Assembly: GCA_050916035.1 (NCBI GenBank)
Contig: CP050876.1
Span: 410,372-474,371, forward strand
Direction of reading: 5' to 3'
DNA: 64,000 bases
DNA from: Vampirovibrio sp.
Lineage (GTDB): Bacteria > Cyanobacteriota > Vampirovibrionia > Vampirovibrionales > JAJTHC01
The notes below the pieces were generated by a model. It was given only the letters and a program-made list of their open reading frames with translations. It was not told the origin of the DNA and did not search any database. Shown piece after piece: positions 16,565 through 60,078 of the stretch; the stretch's first letter is position 1, and every line of letters begins with the position of its first letter. Made by a program: the position numbers and the translations under genes.

Positions 16565-18019
16565 ATGGTCTTTGTTTCGCAGTCTAAATTGCGGATTACC
16601 CCCATTGCGTATCCGCTAGATCAAAATGAAAATGTCTCTTTGCCGTCTGTCCTGAGGGAAGATGCCCCTATTGCAACGGCGCCTCCCAAAGCCAAAAGTC
16701 GCCCTCCCCTCATTCAAAAGAAAAAAGAAGACCCGAAAAAAAAGTCACACTGGATGACCAATGCAGGCTTTCAACTCTATGCGGTCGTCGGAGCGATTAA
16801 AACCGTCTCCAGCCTAAAGCGCGGCTTTGAATTTGGAAACCCCACCTTACTTCTAGGCAATACCGCTTTATTGGCGTCCTTTCCCGCCGTTTTTTGGTCG
16901 CATGGATTTTATGCCAAAGCCTTTATGTTGGTGGCCAATCATTTGTCTGAAATGGCAGAAGCCACCATTGGCTATAATGACCGTGTCACCGCGGAAGCCC
17001 ACAAGGCACGCGAAAAGGGTTATAGCGTCCCTCCCTTAGACATTAAGGGCATGAAAGGATTTCAACATTGGTTTAATCGAGACTTATTAAAACGTACGCT
17101 TCGCTTCCGCAACACCACAAACGACAAACACCAATTTAAAGAAGCCACCGCTTTTATTGTGAATGATTTAAAATATGCGGAAAAACAATTACAAGGTACC
17201 CTTCATGCCGGGGGGCAATGGATCAAAGAAGCCTCTAAAAAAGTGGTGAATCCTCAGTATAAAATGAAATGGCCAGAACGATTCAAAGTGGATTCCTTAG
17301 CCAGTGGATCCCTTGAAAATATCAAGATCCAAAAAAACATCTACCATGCGGAAACTACAGGAGCCTTCGGCGGGATTGTCGGCGTGATGATTGAAACCGT
17401 GGCAGACAGTATCGGCGTTAATCATGTGGCCAAGATTTTTACCCGCCCCGCCTTACTCGTGGCCAACCTGTTACAAACCACCGCCGCCTTATGTGGCGCC
17501 AAGCAATTGTATTTTAGACCCGATGCACAACAGAAAAAATCCCCCAAGTTTAAAAATATGGCCTATCAGGAAGCAGGCGGGGTCGTTTTAGAAGCCGTCG
17601 GTGCCGCGAGCTGGTCCAATGACTGGCTTTTGGGGATTTATCGAATTGGTTCCGCCTTAAGAATGCCCTACCGTAAGCATAAAACCAAATTGACCACCAA
17701 TGAAGCAGGCCAAGTCGTTGAACTCAAAATACTGACCCCTGCGGTGAAAAAAGCCTTATTTACGGAAAATTTGTCTTTTGTGGCGGATGTCGTGGCCGCT
17801 GGGCTCATTTTAGGGGCGCCCTTAATCGCGTGGTGGGAAGCCAAACATCGTAAAAGTCTCAATCCCGTCGAACGTTTAAAGTCCACACCCAAGCAACAGG
17901 CAAAACCCAACGTATCATCCAAGGTTCAGTCCGTTTCTTATCCTCGTTTGTCGCAGAACAAATCCCCTGTCGACACGCAAAATCTAAAGGCCCCATTGGC
18001 TTCTCAGGCATTTGCATAA
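16565..18019 (+). CDS. hypothetical alpha-helical membrane protein (Lys/Pro-rich linker, several hydrophobic segments, C-terminal anchor)
   Basis: Long ORF with no recognisable domain. 'PPKAKSRPPLIQKKKEDPKKKSH' precedes the first hydrophobic segment. A C-terminal transmembrane segment reads 'FVADVVAAGLILGAPLIAWW'. Confidence 0.4.
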   Translation: MVFVSQSKLRITPIAYPLDQNENVSLPSVLREDAPIATAPPKAKSRPPLIQKKKEDPKKKSHWMTNAGFQLYAVVGAIKTVSSLKRGFEFGNPTLLLGNTALLASFPAVFWSHGFYAKAFMLVANHLSEMAEATIGYNDRVTAEAHKAREKGYSVPPLDIKGMKGFQHWFNRDLLKRTLRFRNTTNDKHQFKEATAFIVNDLKYAEKQLQGTLHAGGQWIKEASKKVVNPQYKMKWPERFKVDSLASGSLENIKIQKNIYHAETTGAFGGIVGVMIETVADSIGVNHVAKIFTRPALLVANLLQTTAALCGAKQLYFRPDAQQKKSPKFKNMAYQEAGGVVLEAVGAASWSNDWLLGIYRIGSALRMPYRKHKTKLTTNEAGQVVELKILTPAVKKALFTENLSFVADVVAAGLILGAPLIAWWEAKHRKSLNPVERLKSTPKQQAKPNVSSKVQSVSYPRLSQNKSPVDTQNLKAPLASQAFA

Positions 18020-18138
18020 AGCCTTTTGCAATCATGATGTTTGCTATACAATAGAATTAATCATCGTCGTCTTAGTCAAGAAACACGTTTATTATGCGCC
18101 CTCTCGCTGTGCATAAACCGTGAAGGAGCATTCGCCCA

Positions 18139-19218
18139 ATGGATTTTTTATATCAACCCATGATTGAAGCCTTAACGTTTTTAAAAGGCATTTTAGGGAA
18201 TTATGGTTTCGCTATTATTGTGTTTACCGTACTAATGCGCGTGCTCTTATGGCCTTTAAACACCAAGCAAACCGAGTCCATGAAGGCCATGCAGTCCATG
18301 CAACCCAAGTTAAAGGCCTTGCAAGACCAATATAAAGATGACCCCGCCACCATGCAAAAAGAAGTCATGGCCTTTTACGCGACCAACAAGTTTAATCCCT
18401 TGGCAGGTTGCTTGCCCATGCTTTTGCAAATCCCTATTTTTATTGCCTTATACGGTGCTTTGTCTTCCCCCGCCTTCATGCAGTTGGCTGGGCAAGAACA
18501 CTTTGGATTTATTCAACACTTACACCACACGTGGCGCTCTAATGGGGGAGACCCTTTAGACCATATCATGGCGGTGGACAGTAGTAGTCGTCAGTTTGAA
18601 GCAGGTAAAACCTTAGACGTCTATTTAAAAGGCTTGGATGCCCCTGAACAAATTGCGGTGAAAAGCCTGCGTATGAATGATGTCAAAAAACTCTATGCCG
18701 TGGAGCCTCAGCCCCCGATTGCGGGCAAACCCCTGCACTTCACCATTCACCAAAGTGACTTAGGCTTTGATGATGCCTACAGCAAAAACATTGTTAAGCT
18801 TCAGGGAAGCGTGATGAATGTAGCCTCTAAAGAATTAGAAACGCTTAGCTTCACCCCAGCACAGGGTGCCACGGCCTTTCAAAGTGAAATTCCTACGCGA
18901 AAAACAGAAACCACCTACCATTACGGGGTACTGGCTTTAATTGTGATTTACGGCTTACTGAGTTGGGCGTATCAGTGGTCTATGACTTTGATGTCTGGAA
19001 CACCCACGCCTGCAGAAGGGCCACAAGCCTTGATGAACAAGTTTATGCCGCTGCTCTTTGCCGTTTTAATGTTGATTATTCAGATTCCTGCAGGCGTCAT
19101 GCTTTATTTGGTGACCACCATGGTCATGATGCTTGTTCAGAACTTGTATCTGTATAAGAAAAACCCACCCACGTTGAGCTCGCCTGACGCCAAGCTTCAA
19201 GTGGTGGATGTAAATTAA
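18139..19218 (+). CDS. yidC: membrane protein insertase YidC/Oxa1 family (short form)
   Basis: 'GNYGFAIIVFTVLMRVLLWPLNTKQTESMKAMQSMQPKLKALQDQYKDDP' is the conserved YidC core. An AAGGAG ribosome-binding site is present. Confidence 0.85.
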   Translation: MDFLYQPMIEALTFLKGILGNYGFAIIVFTVLMRVLLWPLNTKQTESMKAMQSMQPKLKALQDQYKDDPATMQKEVMAFYATNKFNPLAGCLPMLLQIPIFIALYGALSSPAFMQLAGQEHFGFIQHLHHTWRSNGGDPLDHIMAVDSSSRQFEAGKTLDVYLKGLDAPEQIAVKSLRMNDVKKLYAVEPQPPIAGKPLHFTIHQSDLGFDDAYSKNIVKLQGSVMNVASKELETLSFTPAQGATAFQSEIPTRKTETTYHYGVLALIVIYGLLSWAYQWSMTLMSGTPTPAEGPQALMNKFMPLLFAVLMLIIQIPAGVMLYLVTTMVMMLVQNLYLYKKNPPTLSSPDAKLQVVDVN

Positions 19219-26320: not shown

Positions 26321-26761
26321 ATGAATTATAAAGAACCTCCTTCGTCTTCGGCTCGCTTACATCAGCAACACGCTAAGCAATACGAAGCCCAGCAAATCAT
26401 GACCGCCAGTAAAGAACAATTACTCGTCATGCTTTATGACGGCTCCATTCGCTTTTGTAAAATTGCCAAAAAAGGTATTCATGAAAAAGACTATGAAAAA
26501 TCAAATACACACTTATTAAAAGCGCAGAATATCATTGCGGAATTTATGGCCAGCTTAGATTTAAAAATCGGAGGGGCTGTGGCAGAAAATTTAATGACCT
26601 TATACGAATATTTGCATCATGAATTGATACAAGCCAATATACAAAAAGACACGGCACGCGTTGACAATGTCCTAGGGCATTTAGTCGACCTTCGGCAAAC
26701 ATGGGTCAAAGCCATCGAATTAGCCCAAAAAGACGCCAAAGCCCAAGCAAACATACCCTAA
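26321..26761 (+). CDS. fliS: flagellar export chaperone FliS
   Basis: 'LLVMLYDGSIRFCKIAKKGI...LLKAQNIIAEFMASLDLKIGGAVAENLMTLYEYLHHELIQANIQKD' is typical of the FliS four-helix family. An AAGGA ribosome-binding site is present. Confidence 0.75.
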   Translation: MNYKEPPSSSARLHQQHAKQYEAQQIMTASKEQLLVMLYDGSIRFCKIAKKGIHEKDYEKSNTHLLKAQNIIAEFMASLDLKIGGAVAENLMTLYEYLHHELIQANIQKDTARVDNVLGHLVDLRQTWVKAIELAQKDAKAQANIP

Positions 26762-26784
26762 AAACGTAAAGGAATACGGCGGCT

Positions 26785-27183
26785 GTGACACGTTCGGTTT
26801 ATGAGATTTTTCAAGAATTAGAGTCGCTTTTAGTTGAAGTGGAACGGCTCACCATGACTTTAATCGCGGGTTTGGCGCAAGCCCCTGAGCATATAGAAGA
26901 AGGCTTGACGCCTGAATTAATACAAGCCTCCCTATTACGAGGGAGCTTATTACATCAAGCCCACGCCTTGTCGAGCAACGTCACCTTAGACCCTGAAGAT
27001 CATCAGTGTCTATTGAAAAAGCTACAACAACTCAATCACTTTGACACCCGCTTAGGGGTAGCGTTAGACGCGCATCACCGCTTATTGCGTGGTGAACTTC
27101 AAAAAACCATGACGGCCCAAGCACAGCTAAAAGTGTACCACGTCCAAGACACGCCCCCTGAGCACTACTTAGAAGAAGCCTAA
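26785..27183 (+). CDS. hypothetical alpha-helical protein downstream of fliS (possible FliT/FlgN-type chaperone)
   Basis: Has a GTG start with an AAGGA ribosome-binding site. The 132-aa product is helical and acidic. Its position after fliS matches fliT in many operons. There is no sequence-level proof. Confidence 0.25.
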   Translation: MTRSVYEIFQELESLLVEVERLTMTLIAGLAQAPEHIEEGLTPELIQASLLRGSLLHQAHALSSNVTLDPEDHQCLLKKLQQLNHFDTRLGVALDAHHRLLRGELQKTMTAQAQLKVYHVQDTPPEHYLEEA

Positions 27184-27238
27184 CCCCTTTTAAGCGATGA
27201 GAACAGGTTACTTGAAGAATGGCACGGGGCTGTCCGGC

Positions 27239-28564
27239 TTAACCACCATGGGACGACGCTCCCTCTGCGGGAGCGGGAGCTCCACCACCGCCACCAAAAT
27301 TAATCGTTGGCAAGCTAATATTGGCATGGCTGGCTTCTACCCATGTCCCAAAAACAGCCGCACATAATCCACCGATCACACCCCAACCCACGAGATGATC
27401 CAAAGGGGGTACATATTTTAAGAACTTACTTAAGGTATCCTTCTTTTTAAGGCTTAAAACGGCATGCGGATCAAAAGGAATCGGTAGATCCTCCATAGAC
27501 AAGCTCCCTTGCTTCGCACGGTTTAAAGGCTTTGTTTGACGAATCGCACGCAGGTTGGAAGATTTATCTTTAGCCCATGGCCATCTGACCCCTTGTTGCG
27601 TGTGCTGCTTAATACGAGGACGTCCCTCTGAACCTTTTCCATAGCGTCCGAGCTGACGTACCACAGGAAGCTTCCATAAATCTTCCGCAATACGAGACCC
27701 TAAATCATGTTCTAATTCTTCGGTAAAGGCTTTACGGTAATAACGCATTTCTTTGCTTGGCTTATGTTCAATGACGTCAAAGGCATAACCAGAAGGATGC
27801 CCCCGACGATCGACAATATTGTCCGCCGTAATGGTGGCTTGAGCTTGAGTCCCTAAGACACTGGCCCGATAACGCGTGGAGGGTTCATCCAAGAATTGAA
27901 CATCTAAAAAGGGACTGTTATAACGCGTATTGTTTGGATCTAGCAAACGCGCTACGGGTTCATAGGCGGTTAAAAAACCAAAAAATCCATTGCGTTTAGA
28001 CCTTAAAATACTGACACTTTCCCCCGTGGGATTTTGACCCGCTTGTTTCCAAAAATCATTTTTAGACCCCACCCCATTTTTTTGATACCGCACGCGATAA
28101 AAGTGACCGTCTTCTCCACGACCCGCTAAAATCTGGCCAGGAACCAGCTTGCCGTCTTCTTCGGCTTGTCGAATTTTGGTATAGTGAAGGAGCCCCTTAA
28201 TCATCACCGCCAAGGTAAAGCCTTCGCTAAAATGTCCGACAACATTCAAGGTACTGCCTTGTAAAAATTCGATTTTAGAATCGTCCTTTTCTTTGGTCAA
28301 CACAGAAGACAAAAGGCGATTGAGTAAGGGATCTCTTTCTATACTACCGTTTTTATTTTCTTCTTTTTTCTCTTCACCTTCTTCTTTCACGTGCTTGGCA
28401 TGGGTCGCTTGCTGAGCCAAAGTCGCCTTAGACACATTACCCAAGGTGGCAAGATCTGCTCCGCCTGCCCCATGAGCGACATGAGCCTCTTGACCTTGGC
28501 GTGCCAAGGAAGCAGAAGTCGTCAGAGTGGGCATCATTGAAAAAGGAGTCATCATAAAATGCAT
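27239..28564 (-). CDS. hypothetical protein with C-terminal transmembrane anchor and Gly-rich tail
   Basis: 441 aa with no recognisable domain. A C-terminal 'VGWGVIGGLCAAVFGTWV' is followed by 'GGGGGAPAPAEGASSHGG'. Confidence 0.4.
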   Translation of the reverse strand: MHFMMTPFSMMPTLTTSASLARQGQEAHVAHGAGGADLATLGNVSKATLAQQATHAKHVKEEGEEKKEENKNGSIERDPLLNRLLSSVLTKEKDDSKIEFLQGSTLNVVGHFSEGFTLAVMIKGLLHYTKIRQAEEDGKLVPGQILAGRGEDGHFYRVRYQKNGVGSKNDFWKQAGQNPTGESVSILRSKRNGFFGFLTAYEPVARLLDPNNTRYNSPFLDVQFLDEPSTRYRASVLGTQAQATITADNIVDRRGHPSGYAFDVIEHKPSKEMRYYRKAFTEELEHDLGSRIAEDLWKLPVVRQLGRYGKGSEGRPRIKQHTQQGVRWPWAKDKSSNLRAIRQTKPLNRAKQGSLSMEDLPIPFDPHAVLSLKKKDTLSKFLKYVPPLDHLVGWGVIGGLCAAVFGTWVEASHANISLPTINFGGGGGAPAPAEGASSHGG

Positions 28565-28751
28565 GAAGAGAAAGACCTCAGTTAAAAAGGAGAAAGAACC
28601 TTACCATTTAGGCTTCTTTCAGCCATCAACAGTAAAAAGGCGACGTGAAATCCGTACGGAGCAAAGATCCAAACGTCAGGAAACACTTTCCCTACTATAC
28701 TGGATTTCTTATTTCGATACAAGGTTTACAAACGCTTAAAACCCACTGCCA

Positions 28752-29960
28752 TTATTTTTGTGCGTTTTGGGGTTTAGATTTTTTCACTTTTTCAGCATTC
28801 ACAATCTGCCCGTTTTCATCAAAAATCGGCAAATGTTGTTCTTCAATAGGTTTCATGGTTTCTACTAGGGGCGCTTGACTAGTTTTAATCGTATTTTTGA
28901 TGGGTTTTGACGCTTTTTGTGTAATTGGGGTGGACGTGCTTGCCTCTGTTGGAGGCTCTACTGGAGCAATATCCGCCTTAAGCACAGGCGTAATATCCAC
29001 AGGGGTTTCTTTGGCCCGCTTATTTTCAATACTAAAACGATGATTTTGATCAATCAATATTTTTTCTTTACGGTGTTGTCGAATGGGGTCCGAATGGTTT
29101 TCCCCCGCACGGCTGTGAAGAATAATATCAATGCGTCTGTTTTTAGCCCGATTACTCGGCGTACTGTTGGACGTTACAGGGCGACTGTCTGCATAGCCCA
29201 CCGCCACTAAATCAGACGGTGTAAACTTATGGTGGTCTATAAAATAGCGTACCACCGTACAGGCACGAGCAGAAGATAATTCCCAATTCGATGGGTAACG
29301 TCCAAAAATAGCGGTATTGTCGGTATGTCCTTCAATATGAATCAGATGCGTTGGGACGCTTTTAAGTAAACGACTGGCGATTTCATCCACAAAGCGAAGG
29401 CTTTTGGGATTTAAATTGGCTTCTCCTGAAGGAAAAAGTAAACGACTGTCAAAACTAATTTTTAAGCCTCGTTCCTGTAATGTCACTTCTAAACCCCGTA
29501 ACGGGACTCCCTCTTTCCCGTCGACTTGTTCTTTCAAACCGAGAGCTGGACTTAAATTTTCGGCCCCCATTGCATCTTTCAATTTTTCAGCAAGACCATT
29601 CGCCACTTCGTCTAATTCTTCCATCAAGTCTTCTAGAGCCTTTTTTTCCCCTTGGGTTAAGGTTAAGCTATCGAATTGACCAATCACCCCTTCGCCTTTT
29701 CCTGTTTCTTCAAACATCGGGTTAGGTTTGTCCGTCGGCGTACTTTGCCCTGTGAGAACTGAAGAGATCCCTTTTAAAAGCGTTTCTTGTTGAAAGGATT
29801 TTTTAATTTCTTGCGCCACCCCCGTGCTGTCTGTTAATTTGGAGGTGGCAATAGCGTACAAGGCGGTAAACGTGGCAAATAACAAGGTAATAAAATCAGC
29901 ATAAGACACCAGCCAACGTTCTAGATTTTCATGTTCAGGGTGTTTTTTATGCCGTGCCAT
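28752..29960 (-). CDS. MotB-like protein (OmpA-family C-terminal domain) with long C-terminal extension
   Basis: 'WLVSYADFITLLFATFTALYA' is a MotB-type transmembrane/plug region and 'IEGHTDNTAIFGRYPSNWELSSARACTVVRYF' is an OmpA-like peptidoglycan-binding motif. There is no motA adjacent. The start is ATG at 29960 or GTG at 29996. Confidence 0.65.
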   Translation of the reverse strand: MARHKKHPEHENLERWLVSYADFITLLFATFTALYAIATSKLTDSTGVAQEIKKSFQQETLLKGISSVLTGQSTPTDKPNPMFEETGKGEGVIGQFDSLTLTQGEKKALEDLMEELDEVANGLAEKLKDAMGAENLSPALGLKEQVDGKEGVPLRGLEVTLQERGLKISFDSRLLFPSGEANLNPKSLRFVDEIASRLLKSVPTHLIHIEGHTDNTAIFGRYPSNWELSSARACTVVRYFIDHHKFTPSDLVAVGYADSRPVTSNSTPSNRAKNRRIDIILHSRAGENHSDPIRQHRKEKILIDQNHRFSIENKRAKETPVDITPVLKADIAPVEPPTEASTSTPITQKASKPIKNTIKTSQAPLVETMKPIEEQHLPIFDENGQIVNAEKVKKSKPQNAQK

Positions 29961-30063
29961 TCGGTGACTTTCTCTTCTCTTACACGCTTTACTCACGATT
30001 CATTGCTTTTTTAGTATAAGGGATGAACACAGAAGATACGGGCGAAAGTATTCAAAATTCATA

Positions 30064-54515: not shown

Positions 54516-55217
54516 GTGAATAATGCTCAAAAAAATATAGCAGTGAATGAACATTATAAGCCTCTACAAGCAAATATTGAGTTTCATAAACACAGATTAC
54601 AAATGGCATTAGATTGTCAATCCGTTTCAATTGGGTGGTTTTTTAAAATCATCACAGGTTACTTTGCTTTTTTATATGGGATTTTATCTATATCTGATAA
54701 ACTGAACGCCGTTTTTGGACCGTATGGTCAATTGATTGTATTAAGCCTTTGCTTCTTTTCTTCTTTGATTATTTTTTTTCTAGGTATTATGGCCGTTCCT
54801 AATTTGAAAAGTTTAGATGCCCTTATTTGTAACGCTCAAGACGAATTAGATAAAACACTATTTGAACAAATAGAAAAGCAGTCAGATGTTAAAGAATATA
54901 CAGAAGCCTTAAAAGCTAAATATGATAAAGATTTCTTATATAATTCTCATTTTCACATTATTGCTTTAATAGTTGGTATAGTAATACTCGCTTTATCAGT
55001 TTGTATCCTAACATTCTCTAAATTAGGAGATCTCAATATCCCAGATTTAAAAGGGTTCATTTTTTGGGGATGTCTAATTGTTTTTATTGTCGGTTTCGGA
55101 TTGACAGCTTGGTTTATTCGCTCACATACAGATGCTTGTAAATGGTGGGAAAAGAACTTCAACGAAAAAAATAAAACATGGCATGAGTATTTGGAAAAAA
55201 CTAATGGAAAAACATGA
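54516..55217 (+). CDS. hypothetical 4-TM membrane protein encoded in a low-GC island
   Basis: This gene runs at about 33% GC against about 50% in its neighbours. There are four predicted hydrophobic helices. The 3' end overlaps the prfB start by 14 bp. There are no recognisable motifs. Confidence 0.4.
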
Positions 55218-56310
55218 ACTCGACACGATATTAAAAGGACTCGCGGAACGGGTGGGCAAAGCCAGCCTCGTGCTGAAAAGCACGGACACGCTCGAAAGAC
55301 TCCACACGCTGGACGCCCAAAGCCAAGCCCCTGACTTGTGGAATGACCCTGCCCACGCCCAAAGCGTCATGCAAGCCCTAACCCACGTCAAAAACACCTT
55401 GGCACAAGCCGACCTATGGCAAGCTCAAATTGAAGACGCCACGGTGATGCTTGAACTGCTGGAAGAAGACCCCAGCCTTGAAGCGGAATTCTTGGCCTTG
55501 GCCAGCGCCTTGACTCACGCCCTGGAAACGTGGGAATTGGAACAAATGCTCGGCGGGGAATATGATGATCACAACGCGCTACTCACCATTAATGCAGGGG
55601 CCGGCGGAACGGACGCGCAAGACTGGGCAGAAATGCTGTTACGGCTCTTTACACGCTGGGGGCAACGCAAAGGCTACAGCGTGGACATCGTCGATCGTCA
55701 TGATGGGGAAGAAGCAGGCATTAAATCCGCCACCTTAAAACTCAAAGGGCGTTATGCCTATGGTTATAGCCGTGCGGAGCATGGGGTGCATCGTTTGGTG
55801 CGGATTTCGCCATTTAACGCCAATGGGAAACGTCAAACCAGTTTTGCCAGTATTGAAGTGGCTCCCTTGGTGGAAGGCGTCGAAGCAGATAGCATCGAAT
55901 TTCGCCCTGAAGAGTTGGAATTTAGTACGGCTCGATCAAGTGGGGCAGGGGGGCAAAACGTCAATAAGGTGGAAACAGCCGTCCGCTTAGTTCATGTGCC
56001 GACAGGCCTTGTGGTTCGTTGTCAACAGGAACGAAGCCAGTTACAAAATAAAGCCATCGCCTTAGACATGCTCCGTTCTAAATTACTGGCCTTAAAAATT
56101 GCAGAACATGACGCCAAAATGGCTGCCGTGAAAGGGGAAGCCTTGTCCGCCAATTTTGGAAGTCAAATTCGAAGCTATGTCTTTGACCCCTATTCTTTGG
56201 TGAAAGACCACCGCACGGGGCATGAAAACAGCAACCTGAACGTGGTCATGGATGGCGATTTGGATCCTTTTATTGAAGCCTATTTAAGGGGCCAACGCTT
56301 AATCAAGTAA
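55204..56310 (+). CDS. prfB: peptide chain release factor 2 (single continuous frame, no programmed +1 frameshift)
   Basis: The 'SPF' stop-codon-recognition tripeptide ('[17 protein letters not shown]') and the 'GGQ' peptidyl-hydrolase motif ('[16 protein letters not shown]') are present. The N-terminus aligns to RF2 without a CUU-UGA-C shift site. The start is set at the ATG at 55204. Confidence 0.85.
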
Positions 56311-56336
56311 ACAAATAACGGGTATGTAACGGATTT

Positions 56337-56365
56337 TTGACAAATGCTTCAAACTAAGGTATAGT
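56337..56365 (+). promoter_or_regulatory. strong sigma70-like promoter (TTGACA-N17-TATAGT) with a roughly 240-nt leader before 56606
   Basis: Perfect -35, 17-nt spacer, near-consensus -10. Confidence 0.5.
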
Positions 56366-56605
56366 CGTTCTTTAGTGTTTGCAAAATGATTGCGTAGACA
56401 ATGCGTTTTTCTCATTTTTTATTTACCAGTAGGTGGCGTGGTCTTCTTCATTCTAAATGTAATCACCATAAGGCACAATTGAGCGTCGTTGCTGGTTTTA
56501 TTCTAGTGTGGCTTATGTGTTTTATCTAAAAGCAATGTTATAGGAGCTACAAGCATCGTTTGGTTGGATGAAGTCCTTTTACAGTCATAGGGTAAACCGT
56601 TTCGC

Positions 56606-58231
56606 ATGATGTCCATACAACAGCACCCCCTAAGCTATCACACCCTGTCGACGCTCAAAGCCGAACAGGATGAATTGAAACACCCTGTTTTGTCGCCCCC
56701 TGTGACCCACATCCAAACACCAATAGATGACCACTCAGCCCCAGAAGACTCTTTTCAAAAAGCACCCCCCCTCGTTTCAACAGAGACCGCCCCTCAAAAA
56801 TTCAGCCTTTTGCATCCGTTTCAACGACCCAAAAAGAAAAAAGACCCCCCTCAAAAATTCGAAATATCGCCTGAATTAGTGGCGTTGGCCGTAGCTGGTT
56901 ATGCCTCTACACTCAATCCCGCTGCCGCCGCAGGCTTAACAGCTAAAATCGACTCACAATTTTTTTGGAACTTTACCATTCTAGACTTTGTAGGCATGGC
57001 ATTCCCTCGCATCTCTCGCTCTCTACAACGAGGCGCCCTACCTTATGATCCCACTCAAGACCCTGAGTCTCAAAAACGCCACGGTTTAGACCGGTGGCGC
57101 TACATTAAACATCAACAAGTCCAAAATGCCAACTGGCTCAACTTACGAGAAGAAATGCTGAGAGAACTCCAAGCCGCCCCAGGTTCATTGTTGGTCCCCA
57201 CCATTGTCTTTAGTCTCGTCCCCTTGTTGAGCCGTCAAAAAGCTTTGAATTGGATGGGACGACGAAGCTTACAAATGTCTCATCACTTGGCAGAACAAGA
57301 AAGTTTAAGTCAACAACATTTTCTAAAAACAAAATCCCCTCGATTGCCCCAGCATGAAAAAGATATTCACGCCTTAGAAGCCTTAGGGCGTGATTATGTC
57401 CGTACGATTTTTAAATCAGTGCCTGAATCACACCTTCACGAAAAGATCGACCTTCACTTTACCGCCAAGACGATTATGGACCCTTACTTTCACATGAGTA
57501 CAGGGCATTTAAAGGCCTTAAAAGCAGGACTCAAAAAAGGGGAGTTGTTTGGACTTCAAGAACAACTGGCCCAAGCCACGACCCTCAATACTAAAACCCC
57601 TTTAACCCTTCAGAACGTCAGCTTGGCTAAAATCATTGAAGAAATTGCGGATACTCAAGGCAAGCTACTCGCCTTTGATGTCAAACATGGGGCGGGATCT
57701 ATTTTCTTTAACCGCAAACGTCGCGGGGAACATGCCTTACTCACCGCGAAAATGCAAGCTCTGTATACCTTAGCCGAACAAAGTACCTTAACACTCAATG
57801 CCCAACACCTTCCCCAGCAACGCATGCATAAAGGGATGACCCTTCTCACCCTTCTGGCAGGACATCAAGCCGAACAAGTGCCTATTTTAGAGCGTTTACG
57901 CCAGCTCGACAAAGGCCGAGATTTATGGACGGCAAGTCTTCGCGAATACTTAAAGCCGAATCAATCCAAGCCATTTGAACAGATTATGGCACAGGCGCTT
58001 GAAAAAATGAAAGCCACCAAGGCGGTCTTAACCTTGGCCGCCTTGACGTGGATGTTAGGTTGGATGTGGTATTTGTCCCATGCCATTCAACGTGGAGAGG
58101 AATACCCCGCGAACCGTTTAGTGTCATTGAGTCTCAAGAAAAAGTCTGAAGAAAAAAATCCCCCTGAAGAAACAGCTCCCCCCTCGCCTAATCTGTATCA
58201 TCAAATCAAAGAAGGAGACTTGGCTTCATGA
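56606..58231 (+). CDS. hypothetical large alpha-helical membrane-anchored protein (first gene of a two-gene operon)
   Basis: 541 aa with no known domain. 'RPKKKKDPPQKFEISP' precedes a hydrophobic segment. A C-terminal transmembrane segment reads 'AVLTLAALTWMLGWMWYL'. It overlaps the next ORF by 4 bp (ATGA). Confidence 0.45.
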   Translation: MMSIQQHPLSYHTLSTLKAEQDELKHPVLSPPVTHIQTPIDDHSAPEDSFQKAPPLVSTETAPQKFSLLHPFQRPKKKKDPPQKFEISPELVALAVAGYASTLNPAAAAGLTAKIDSQFFWNFTILDFVGMAFPRISRSLQRGALPYDPTQDPESQKRHGLDRWRYIKHQQVQNANWLNLREEMLRELQAAPGSLLVPTIVFSLVPLLSRQKALNWMGRRSLQMSHHLAEQESLSQQHFLKTKSPRLPQHEKDIHALEALGRDYVRTIFKSVPESHLHEKIDLHFTAKTIMDPYFHMSTGHLKALKAGLKKGELFGLQEQLAQATTLNTKTPLTLQNVSLAKIIEEIADTQGKLLAFDVKHGAGSIFFNRKRRGEHALLTAKMQALYTLAEQSTLTLNAQHLPQQRMHKGMTLLTLLAGHQAEQVPILERLRQLDKGRDLWTASLREYLKPNQSKPFEQIMAQALEKMKATKAVLTLAALTWMLGWMWYLSHAIQRGEEYPANRLVSLSLKKKSEEKNPPEETAPPSPNLYHQIKEGDLAS

Positions 58232-60078
58232 AAATGCCTGCTCCTCCTCCCTATCAGAAACACCCCCTATTAGAAGGCATTAATCACTTCTACTATAACC
58301 GGATTAATCATCTTCCCACACAAGGGCGACATTTTAGCGATACTTGGCACGCTTCCGCTCGACAGACAGAGAACCCCTTGAGCAAAGCCAGTCAACATTT
58401 TGTCGCACAGTTTATGTCCTTGCTCAGCAAGAGTGTTGAATTTTCAAATTTTGAAAAAACCCCTGAACTCTTTGGCGTTACCATCCCAAAGCTCCCCTTA
58501 ACCTTCTGTATTCTGATGTTTTTTGGATCGATGGTGCCTGCTCGTATACATTCCGAATACTTAAGAGCCTCCGATAAAGATGCTAATAATGACGGTATTC
58601 CCGAAGGTAAAGACTACCGTGCGATTCGAGACGTCATTATTCGAGATGTGGCCTCTATTTCGCTCTTTTTATTCGCCTTAGACCCCGTTAATCATGCCTT
58701 ACTTCAAAAGCGTCAACGAGATGGAGCTTTATTTAGTTTGGGTAAAAATAAGCAACCTAGCTTAATGATGATGATGAATCCCACCCTTAATCCTCGACAT
58801 GGACATCACAGTATTGATTACCCCAGCTTGGATCAACTCTACGCCTTAAGTGCCAAAGCCCCTGAAACATTGGCGAAACTTTCCGCCATGGATGAAGCCA
58901 ATGATCAAATGCACCAAGCCCTAGAGCGCTACATAAAAAGTTACCCCTTTCTTAAAAAAGGGTCTCAAACGTATTCACAGATTTTAAAAAATCCTCACGC
59001 CAGTCCGCGTCAAAAGAAAGAAGCTGCCTTCAAGCTGAAGTTTCACGACACCTTGTCGCAGCACAGTGAAGGCCTGCTCGCCCATGTACAAGCCTTAGAT
59101 GCGCGTAAAGCGTTACTCAAAATAAAATTACAGGAAGCCCTGCCTGCTTCACAACGAGGCACCTTAAATGCCAATCCTCAAGCCCTGATTCGACAACTCT
59201 TTGAGTTAGAAGGTCTAGAACGGCAAGCCGATGTAGACGCCTTAACGCTGTCTAAAGTTCAGGGCATTCTTGAAAAACGCATGGGCACCCCTGCTCAAGC
59301 AGAGAAAACAGCCACAGGCCTATGGCATACCCTTCAAACGCAAGCCTTAGTAGGAGACTTACCCCCTGAAAAAGCTTTTTTAGCCCCTGCGCGAGAAACC
59401 GTGGAGTACCAGTTATTTTCAAAAGACATGGAAAAAGCCATACAGCATGGAGACCTGAAACACTTTAATTTAATGGGGGACAAAGCCCATAACTATCAAG
59501 ATTTTATAGATGTGGCCACCCAAGCCGTTATGGCCAAGCATCCCATCCTCAATGGCAAAGCCCTTCGTTATGCGGAGGTCTTTCATACCCTGAAGGAAGA
59601 ACATTTTGGTCGTTTAGAAGAAACTATTGCGGAGTATCGCGCCAGTCAAAACCTTCTAGATACGCTAAAAGATCCCCAACACGGGACTGCCATTTTAGAG
59701 CACTTAAAAGCCCTCTACCAACATTCAGGTCAAGCCATGGCTGAAGTGGATACGCTAGATGCCCACGTCAAAGCATTACAAGCAGAGGGTAAAGACTTTT
59801 TGAAGGCGTCTGTCCACTTAGGGGGTAAAACGATTGACTTACCATGGGTAGAAGGCATTGCGGAAAAACTACAGCTCAAAACCCTCAAACGCTTAGATGT
59901 CCGTAAGCTTCTTTCTGAATCTGCACGCAATATGCGCTCTCCCGTTGATTTTATGGGCTACGTTTTTGTTGCCAGTGTCATTGGCTACTTCCCTGTTTGG
60001 TTAAATCAAGTGGTCACCGACACCGAATTTCGACTCACCAAAGCCGCCGAAGCGTCAAAGCCCAAGCAAGCCCCCTAG
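58228..60078 (+). CDS. hypothetical large alpha-helical membrane-anchored protein (second gene of operon)
   Basis: 616 aa, rich in Ala/Leu/Gln/Glu helices. Transmembrane segments 'LPLTFCILMFFGSMVPA' and C-terminal 'FMGYVFVASVIGYFPVWL' are present. It is translationally coupled to the upstream gene. Confidence 0.45.
   Translation: MKMPAPPPYQKHPLLEGINHFYYNRINHLPTQGRHFSDTWHASARQTENPLSKASQHFVAQFMSLLSKSVEFSNFEKTPELFGVTIPKLPLTFCILMFFGSMVPARIHSEYLRASDKDANNDGIPEGKDYRAIRDVIIRDVASISLFLFALDPVNHALLQKRQRDGALFSLGKNKQPSLMMMMNPTLNPRHGHHSIDYPSLDQLYALSAKAPETLAKLSAMDEANDQMHQALERYIKSYPFLKKGSQTYSQILKNPHASPRQKKEAAFKLKFHDTLSQHSEGLLAHVQALDARKALLKIKLQEALPASQRGTLNANPQALIRQLFELEGLERQADVDALTLSKVQGILEKRMGTPAQAEKTATGLWHTLQTQALVGDLPPEKAFLAPARETVEYQLFSKDMEKAIQHGDLKHFNLMGDKAHNYQDFIDVATQAVMAKHPILNGKALRYAEVFHTLKEEHFGRLEETIAEYRASQNLLDTLKDPQHGTAILEHLKALYQHSGQAMAEVDTLDAHVKALQAEGKDFLKASVHLGGKTIDLPWVEGIAEKLQLKTLKRLDVRKLLSESARNMRSPVDFMGYVFVASVIGYFPVWLNQVVTDTEFRLTKAAEASKPKQAP

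Follow-up and report, generated by a model that had tools for sequence, protein, structure and literature searches.

Positions 56337–60078 of the 64,000-nucleotide stretch of Vampirovibrio sp. DNA analysed here (contig CP050876.1, positions 410,372–474,371 of the forward strand; hereafter the window) carry a promoter, a long leader and two overlapping genes, termed C and D in this study. The evidence tips somewhat in favour of this region being a self-contained bicistronic operon, conserved across Vampirovibrionia, which encodes a translationally coupled heteromeric inner-membrane complex. Judged by sequence, C and D constitute an undescribed paired family that is restricted to Vampirovibrionia, the closest non-photosynthetic relatives of the oxygenic cyanobacteria. 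To our knowledge this group holds the sole known predatory member of the phylum, and we know of very little characterised biology that is specific to the lineage. The C–D pair makes a good target for studying the cell-biological peculiarities of these bacteria. It is represented by 124 sequence clusters, none of them annotated, and its motifs and profiles amount to a family definition able to seed a Pfam or NCBIfam entry. The pair is also apparently highly expressed, since its near-consensus promoter is conserved across species. Domain-less, lineage-restricted membrane proteins are common in metagenome-assembled genomes (MAGs), and the present finding is descriptive.

The window is ordinary chromosomal DNA with a GC content of ~45%. 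Its genes encode EF-G, EF-Ts, YidC, PheT, pyruvate:ferredoxin oxidoreductase, SerA, RsgA, a polyprenyl synthetase, RF2, PurS/PurQ and CarA, and flagellar genes are few (FliS and a MotB-like gene). An earlier note on this DNA had grouped C (541 amino acids) and D (616 amino acids) with two further open reading frames (ORFs), A (16565–18019, 484 amino acids) and B (27239–28564, minus strand, 441 amino acids), as one family of tail-anchored proteins. The four ORFs are present with these coordinates and lengths; the idea of a four-member family is corrected below. The family alignments used throughout are A1 for C (14 sequences), A2 for D (10 sequences), A5 for A (13 sequences) and A4 and A7 for the leader.

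The C–D pair and its distribution

C is followed directly by D in all of the approximately 25 loci fetched (L001–L022, L025 and L026), as established by tblastn for L001–L015 and by gene calls and profile matches for L016–L021, L025 and L026; the same order is found in L022. At loci with gene calls, C and D overlap by 1–41 nt, mostly by 4. In the window the junction reads GCT TCA TGA with an embedded ATG, giving an ATGA overlap at 58228–58231. Flanking genes vary from one locus to another (prfB/purS, murG-like/flgG, an integrase gene, pfkB or an M16 peptidase gene), and the C–D pair is therefore the conserved unit. The earlier description of C and D as co-transcribed and translationally coupled behind a strong promoter agrees with the conserved promoter, the ATGA overlap and the Shine–Dalgarno (SD) sequence of D (Table 1).

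For each protein examined, the nearest relatives are hypothetical proteins of MAGs that bear the label Vampirovibrionales or Candidatus Melainabacteria; the top match is a Lake Mendota Vampirovibrionales bin with 94–95% amino-acid identity. Identity to window C and D is 34 and 28%, respectively, in Vampirovibrio sp. DET50b and 31 and 27% in a Lac Pavin Melainabacteria MAG. As the homologues of both proteins span 28–95% identity and display the same conservation pattern throughout, C and D are taken to be real genes under selection. An exhaustive HMMER search of 1.84 billion representative sequences with the C profile gave the 124 clusters at E ≤ 1e-3, 89 of which have E ≤ 1e-10. The remote C-like proteins (380–660 amino acids) match in two stretches only, an N-proximal module of ~100 residues and the C-terminal transmembrane (TM) region. 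Across 47 such remote members, with a mean identity of 17%, ten module residues are invariant within the motif D...PR......RG...YDP..DP ... LNW.N..EE..RE....GPG, and the C-terminal Q....YP..RL is also kept. The downstream partners in the remote loci L016–L018 match the D profile (E = 6e-17, 4e-12 and 1.5e-5), and a profile made from remote D partners alone recovers window D with E = 8e-31. The C profile scores window C at 860 bits, and the D profile gives window D 1070 bits. In the window, a gene with the C-type N-proximal module and a C-terminal TM–YPANRL region is overlapped by one that encodes the D-type module (..R.IRD..RD..S.SLF.F...P) together with a C-terminal PVW(L/F)N TM helix, the combination by which members of the paired family can be recognised. 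A metagenome scan with A1 added only one new locus.

The source names of the clusters are Vampirovibrionales, Melainabacteria or 'Cyanobacteria bacterium', with the single exception of 'Coleofasciculaceae'. This exception is the remote C-like protein P0175 (HEY9686334.1), deposited as 'Coleofasciculaceae cyanobacterium', the contig of which has fliN-fliO-fliP-fliQ-fliR and Vampirovibrionia synteny. A locus with the C–D operon and its leader, L009 (JBEISK010000008.1), is deposited as a 'Gammaproteobacteria bacterium' MAG. These two labels were considered as an extension of the family's range and rejected, because gene content, synteny and the leader suggest misbinning or mislabelling; both records are probably mislabelled or misbinned. 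The named homologues all derive from Vampirovibrionales or Candidatus Melainabacteria MAGs, in line with the lineage specificity that had been claimed for these proteins. The lack of recognisable domains noted previously was likewise borne out: searches of A, B, C and D against Pfam, NCBIfam, PADLOC and PHROGs returned sub-threshold noise only, as did Pfam searches of 10 and then 47 remote C-like proteins. The profiles A1, A2 and A6 matched nothing meaningful in the PDB, where apolipoproteins and designed bundles gave weak matches that are compositional.

Table 1. Positions of the promoter, leader, genes and conserved protein segments of the C–D operon (window numbering), and of u1–u2, a second gene pair at other loci that is described in the last section (locus numbering)
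Feature	Position	Strand	Basis or remark
Sigma-70-type promoter	56337–56365	+	−35 TTGACA 56337–56342, 17-nt spacer, −10 TATAGT 56360–56365
5′ leader of C, U-rich, ~240 nt, conserved	56366–56605	+	Alignments A4 and A7
Most conserved leader block, AGGAGCTACAAGCATCGTTTGG	56542–56563	+	43–64 nt upstream of the C start
Gene C, 541 amino acids	56606–58231	+	ORF; 15 close homologues; 124 clusters in profile search
C residues 89–215, N-proximal module	56870–57250	+	Invariant columns in A1; alignment of 117 modules
C residues 472–505, C-terminal TM (LTLAALTWMLGWMWYLSHAI) then Q-x-G-x-E-YPANRL tail	58019–58120	+	A1
SD sequence AAGGAG for D, inside the 3′ end of C	58212–58217	+	10 nt before ATG 58228
Gene D, 616 amino acids	58228–60078	+	ORF; 9 close homologues; downstream of C in all loci
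D residues 70–172, conserved module	58435–58743	+	Invariant columns in A2; kept in remote D-like partners
D residues 562–602: MRSPVD, C-terminal TM (VIGFFPVWLNQVVT), ETEYRL	59911–60033	+	Invariant in A2
u1–u2 pair	L016 5098–7229; L018 4763–7392; L020 7353–9496; L021 7233–9604; L025 7264–9614	−	

Promoter and 5′ leader

The TTGACA-N17-TATAGT promoter and the leader of ~240 nt that the earlier note had described are both present. The promoter agrees with the consensus at 11 of 12 positions and is the top promoter-like site of the scanned region, and TTGACAAA-N17-TAnAAT is kept at the same position in eight other loci. A stop codon just upstream of 56591 closes the frame of C, so that translation can start no earlier than 56606 and the leader comprises ~240 nt. 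No canonical SD sequence is found at a working distance from the start codon of C.

Thirteen loci retain both the promoter and the entire leader, although their C proteins are only 50–56% identical to window C; at the nucleotide level, the leader is about as well conserved across them as coding sequence. By nhmmer, the leader was found solely upstream of C (13 loci), and it is absent from the more distant loci L004, L014, L015 and L022. The mean column identity of A4 and A7 is 71%. In the group formed by L001, L006, L007, L009, L011 and L013, the leader is 0.79–0.88 identical, compared with 0.70–0.81 for the coding nucleotides of C, and the identity at third codon positions of C (0.52–0.65) lies below that of the leader. 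Between the window and the other loci, the corresponding identities are 0.43–0.56 for the leader and 0.38–0.45 for third codon positions. An exact copy of the block AGGAGCTACAAGCATCGTTTGG occurs in seven loci, and 10 of 15 loci have it with at most one mismatch; the window contains it only once, and none of 100 shuffles contained it.

Three explanations of the leader were considered and rejected. For a stable structured RNA or riboswitch, the Rfam 15 covariance models gave no match over 56250–56700 at E ≤ 1, the minimum free energy was no better than that of shuffled sequences (z-score +0.34) and RNAalifold returned only weak structure, with an unfavourable covariation term and one helix broken in L011 and L013. 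For a leader peptide, a 13-codon upstream ORF ends on the ATGA of C in the window, but L001 and other loci lack it. For a sigma-54 promoter, TGGCAC-N5 is present in the leader, but the −12 element TTGC is missing. Since the leader is conserved and has no Rfam match, excess folding energy or covariation, we treat it as a putative clade-specific, sequence-level control region that would act as RNA or DNA. It may represent a new sequence-specific regulatory element, and as a conserved element it lends itself to testing.

Membrane modules, topology and a proposed mechanism

Protein C has a disordered, variable N-terminus that ends in a Lys patch, followed by a conserved membrane module, a variable α/β centre and a C-terminal TM helix with a conserved tail. 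The hydrophobic helices of the module at residues ~117–133 and 189–208 (Kyte–Doolittle hydropathy, KD, 1.84) flank a 55-residue polar loop, and its motif residues are D127, P134-R135, R142-G143, Y147-D148-P149, D152-P153, N176-W177-x-N179, E182-E183, R186-E187 and P192-G193. In the C-terminal region, W482...R504 is invariant in A1, and the Q, Y and R of the tail are kept in the remote set. The C-terminal helix (~473–494 of 541 residues) has a KD of only 1.16 (residues 473–491) because it is rich in Trp and Tyr, yet it is the best segment of C on the Hessa scale. The AlphaFold2 (AF2) model of C calculated from the family alignment has a central region (220–480) with predicted local distance difference test (pLDDT) values of 80–94, an α/β arrangement and four short strands; a Foldseek comparison of this model with the PDB gave nothing below E = 0.29. 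Conservation per block is 0.85–0.89 in the module and the C-terminal TM region, whereas it is 0.45–0.70 in the centre.

Protein D comprises a conserved N-terminal region, two hydrophobic helices, an all-helical centre and a C-terminal TM helix. Its module contains helices at ~81–104 (81–99, KD 1.85) and ~136–159 (136–154, KD 1.68) around an acidic loop and is described by the motif MFF.SM.PAR.HSE.LRA ... D.R.IRDV.IRD..SISLFLFAL.PV. The C-terminal helix (~574–597 of 616 residues) has a KD of 1.48 (residues 579–597) with a family mean of 1.78, and remote D proteins retain the P-V-W-(L/F)-N motif. In the AF2 model of D from the family alignment, the centre (210–520; pLDDT 70–91) is all-helical with 40-residue helices. 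The conservation pattern resembles that of C, being highest in the hydrophobic helices, loop and tail and lowest in the centre; the strongest constraint in both proteins falls on the hydrophobic helices, the short loops and the C-terminal tail. Within the loop that joins the module helices of D, residues 118–129 (DANNDGIPEGKD; 58579–58614) have the DxNxDG...D look of an EF-hand/dockerin-like calcium-binding loop. This feature is conserved in the close group and absent from the remote D-like partners, and a long insertion is present instead in L014/L015.

The membrane-type hydrophobic helices reported in the earlier note are therefore present, and their flanking charges bear on orientation. In the families, the net charge is +3.4 after helix 2 and +2.2 before the last TM helix of D and +2.1 before the last TM helix of C, and C has a poly-Lys patch ahead of helix 1. 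Under the positive-inside rule, these charges favour cytoplasmic central domains for C and D, with a predicted topology of N-terminus in, loop out and C-terminal tail out.

We propose that the near-consensus sigma-70 promoter would drive an mRNA with a long, sequence-conserved leader, which would control the translation of C or the stability of the mRNA and would be read by a protein or small RNA rather than through a riboswitch-like fold. Through the ATGA overlap and its own AAGGAG, D would be made in step with C (1:1 synthesis), and the two products would assemble into one heteromeric complex in the cytoplasmic membrane. For each subunit we predict a 2+1 design in which two N-proximal helices bracket a conserved, periplasm-facing loop, a large and fast-evolving helical domain lies in the cytoplasm tethered to the membrane at both ends, and the C-terminal TM helix places a short conserved tail outside. 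The membrane-embedded part may be the functional core, its invariant Asp, Arg, Glu and Pro residues suggesting a polar intramembrane site, and the cytoplasmic domains may form a lineage-variable scaffold.

Several points weigh against this proposal. The binding of C to D is a prediction, and the topology is based on simple hydropathy and charge counts. In the AF2 models it is precisely the putative membrane helices that have pLDDT values below 50, and the N-terminal regions are poor. Helix 1 of C is short (~15–17 hydrophobic residues) and contains the invariant Asp, and helix 2 has up to three Pro residues, so that both helices could be re-entrant or interfacial and not membrane-spanning. Ahead of helix 1, D carries a net negative charge (−1.2), atypical of a cytoplasmic flank. 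As for the leader, it is without covariation or excess folding energy, and part of its conservation could reflect operator sites at the DNA level.

The central helical domains might instead be periplasmic and bracketed by TM helices, in the style of Wzz or of four-helix-bundle sensors, with the pair serving envelope polysaccharide or lipopolysaccharide assembly or sensing. This is unlikely, as the charge distribution favours a cytoplasmic centre and as a periplasmic centre, in proteins that have three hydrophobic helices but lack a signal peptide, would need helices 1–2 to be non-spanning. Pfam Wzz, GNVR and 4HB_MCP gave no match even at E ≤ 1, Wzz and GNVR matches were found neither in C and D nor in 57 relatives, and the association with neighbouring genes is loose and missing at several loci. 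C and D further differ from Wzz and other polysaccharide co-polymerases and from McpS-like sensors in their extra hydrophobic helix, in a charge bias that predicts the opposite orientation with a cytoplasmic domain, in the absence of any Pfam or NCBIfam match and in having no kinase, methyl-accepting chemotaxis protein signalling or Wzc-type output domain.

One might also envisage that C and D are secreted as a pair of translocators or pore-formers, in analogy with the type III proteins SipB/SipC or with an α-pore-forming toxin, and would insert into a prey or host membrane during epibiotic predation. We regard this as distinctly unlikely. The type III translocators (SipB/IpaB and SipC/IpaC) are known by family matches and by neighbouring chaperone or injectisome genes, and C and D show neither; they have no sequence or Pfam similarity to these proteins. 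Their helices are disposed as two near the N-terminus and one at the C-terminus, their context is housekeeping and their membrane segments are conserved across the lineage. No secretion-system genes are present among the annotated genes of the window, which is housekeeping DNA, and the earlier labels 'effector' and 'surface protein' find no support there. The chlamydial Inc proteins resemble C and D in being lineage-specific and domain-less and in combining paired hydrophobic helices with helical cytosolic domains. They are defined by a bilobed hydrophobic domain together with type III secretion, a combination not seen in C and D. The loop of the Inc bilobed hairpin is very short, whereas those of C (55 residues) and D (~36 residues) are longer and conserved; C and D in addition have a third, C-terminal TM helix, show no sequence similarity to Inc proteins and are accompanied by no type III secretion system genes that we could see.

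For the inner-membrane complex preferred here, parallels in organisation may be MotA/MotB, ExbB/ExbD and GldL/GldM, in which two overlapping genes likewise encode membrane subunits with an invariant Asp and Arg in or beside hydrophobic helices and a large cytoplasmic helical domain. These systems differ from C–D in the number and order of helices, and C and D lack a peptidoglycan-binding or plug domain and match them in neither sequence nor fold; the likeness would be an analogy of organisation only.

The u1–u2 pair and the ORFs A and B

In deeper Vampirovibrionia (L016, L018/L019, L020, L021 and L025/L026), a second gene pair, u1–u2, diverges from C–D across 390–770 bp. The two genes overlap or abut and encode proteins of 446–563 (u1) and 259–313 (u2) amino acids, neither of which contains a Pfam domain, and the surrounding gene order is DAC / u2 u1 / C D / TPR / GT9 GT9 / S20 / fliN-fliR. 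Both proteins share the design of a hydrophobic module close to the N-terminus, followed by a helical body and a TM helix at the C-terminus, and they end with a (L/F)-N-x-x-(L/I)-T-(R/K) motif on the last TM helix that is similar in D. Local hhalign comparisons linked D with u2 at a probability of 76% (P = 2e-5, 146 columns covering the N-module) and, over the C-terminal halves, u1 with D at 72% (P = 3.5e-5). The probability for the C module and u1 was 17% (P = 1.4e-3, the D..GM..PR stretch), and the direct comparison of C with D gave 0.3%. On account of these links, C, D, u1 and u2 may belong to one very old family, although this is suggestive only. A profile search revealed no u1 or u2 homologue in the window, and A and B are neither u1 nor u2.

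We tentatively suggest, at somewhat less than an even chance, that C–D and u1–u2 together make up an undescribed membrane machine found throughout Vampirovibrionia and absent from the oxygenic cyanobacteria, with distantly related 2+1-helix subunits, a polar intramembrane site and, in the clade of the window, a dedicated and undescribed 240-nt leader.

Their genomic surroundings raise the question of whether C–D, and u1–u2 with it, are lineage-specific flagellar accessory components. The genes flgG-flgA lie downstream in L001/L002, and fliN-fliO-fliP-fliQ-fliR lie 5–7 kb downstream in L016, L018 and L025; moreover, the fetched lineages appear to be flagellated. Yet no flagellar gene lies within 10 kb of C–D in the window, L004, L014/L015, L020 or L021, flagellar genes are scattered in these genomes, so that chance proximity is likely, and C–D has its own sigma-70-type promoter, with no sigma-28-like site noticed. 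A flagellar role is thus very unlikely. At L013, a 357-residue multi-helix membrane protein (17325–18398, minus strand) matches the u2 profile through its C-terminal TM helix and LNIYLTRQR only (E = 7e-9); it adjoins flgC-like and ExbB/ExbD-like genes.

The idea that A, B, C and D are paralogues within a single family of tail-anchored proteins with a Lys/Pro linker, acting as effectors, scaffolds or surface proteins, draws on real resemblances. All four are lineage-restricted and without recognisable domains, hydropathy scans place a hydrophobic helix near the C-terminus of each (residues 403–421 of 484 in A, KD 2.11; 391–409 of 441 in B, KD 1.75), and A and C both have a Lys-rich patch ahead of the first hydrophobic helix. 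However, the best E value in an all-versus-all BLASTP comparison was 0.34, and hhalign with the family alignments gave probabilities of 0.5% for C/D and 0.2% for each of A/C, A/D and C/B; a repeat with larger alignments left A versus C and A versus D at or below 0.3%. No two of the four are therefore linked by sequence or profile comparison. The earlier note had itself fixed beforehand that a lack of detectable pairwise homology would speak against the family, and by that standard the four-member family is refuted; we leave it hardly any probability. A is monocistronic with variable neighbours and B sits between fliS and a motB-like gene, which further separates them from C–D. A weaker version of the paralogy idea appears to survive for C and D only, by way of their links to u1–u2.

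The designation 'tail-anchored' with a 'single hydrophobic helix' also needs revision. By hydropathy only, a TM helix within ~50 residues of the C-terminus is found in A, B, C and D, and C and D resemble tail-anchored proteins in this helix, in the tails that follow it (47 residues in C and 19 in D) and in having no signal peptide. In tail-anchored proteins the helix is the sole membrane segment, which is true of B alone. C, D and A are not tail-anchored because each has additional conserved hydrophobic helices, namely the two module helices of C and D and residues 94–112 (KD 1.54) and 267–285 (KD 1.5) of A, and the tail of C is conserved and longer than is usual for the class. The Ala/Leu/Gln/Glu-rich helical body ascribed to all four is a fair description of C and D, but not of A, which is Lys/Ala-rich, or of B, which contains 10% Gly. 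Similarly, the Lys-rich stretch before the first hydrophobic helix exists in the A and C families, where it persists as a composition (A5 and A1), but it does not align between them and fails as a homologous linker. The Lys/Pro 'linker' would thus be a compositional feature, most simply a positive-inside topogenic patch, and not a homologous motif.

A constitutes its own family, restricted to Vampirovibrionales (14 homologues; loci L023 and L024), with the conserved motifs SHWMTNAGY..YAGVGAIK, NPTL..GN..LLAS.P.VF.SH..YAK and GAASWSNDWLLG.YR.GS.L. EF-G lies upstream of A in both loci in which the upstream gene was seen (the window and L024), and the downstream neighbours vary, being yidC in the window and flgG-flgA in L024. 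B lies directly downstream of a 414-residue MotB-like gene (MotB_plug and OmpA; region 26321–29996) and also adjoins fliS and an unannotated 132-residue ORF; B may be flagellum-related.

Elsewhere in the window, prfB (RF2; 55132–56310) is a single unbroken ORF across the region of the programmed +1 frameshift site that is present in many bacteria. Its annotated ATG overlaps the preceding 233-residue ORF (54516–55217; no Pfam match), and the true start of prfB is therefore probably an internal Met.

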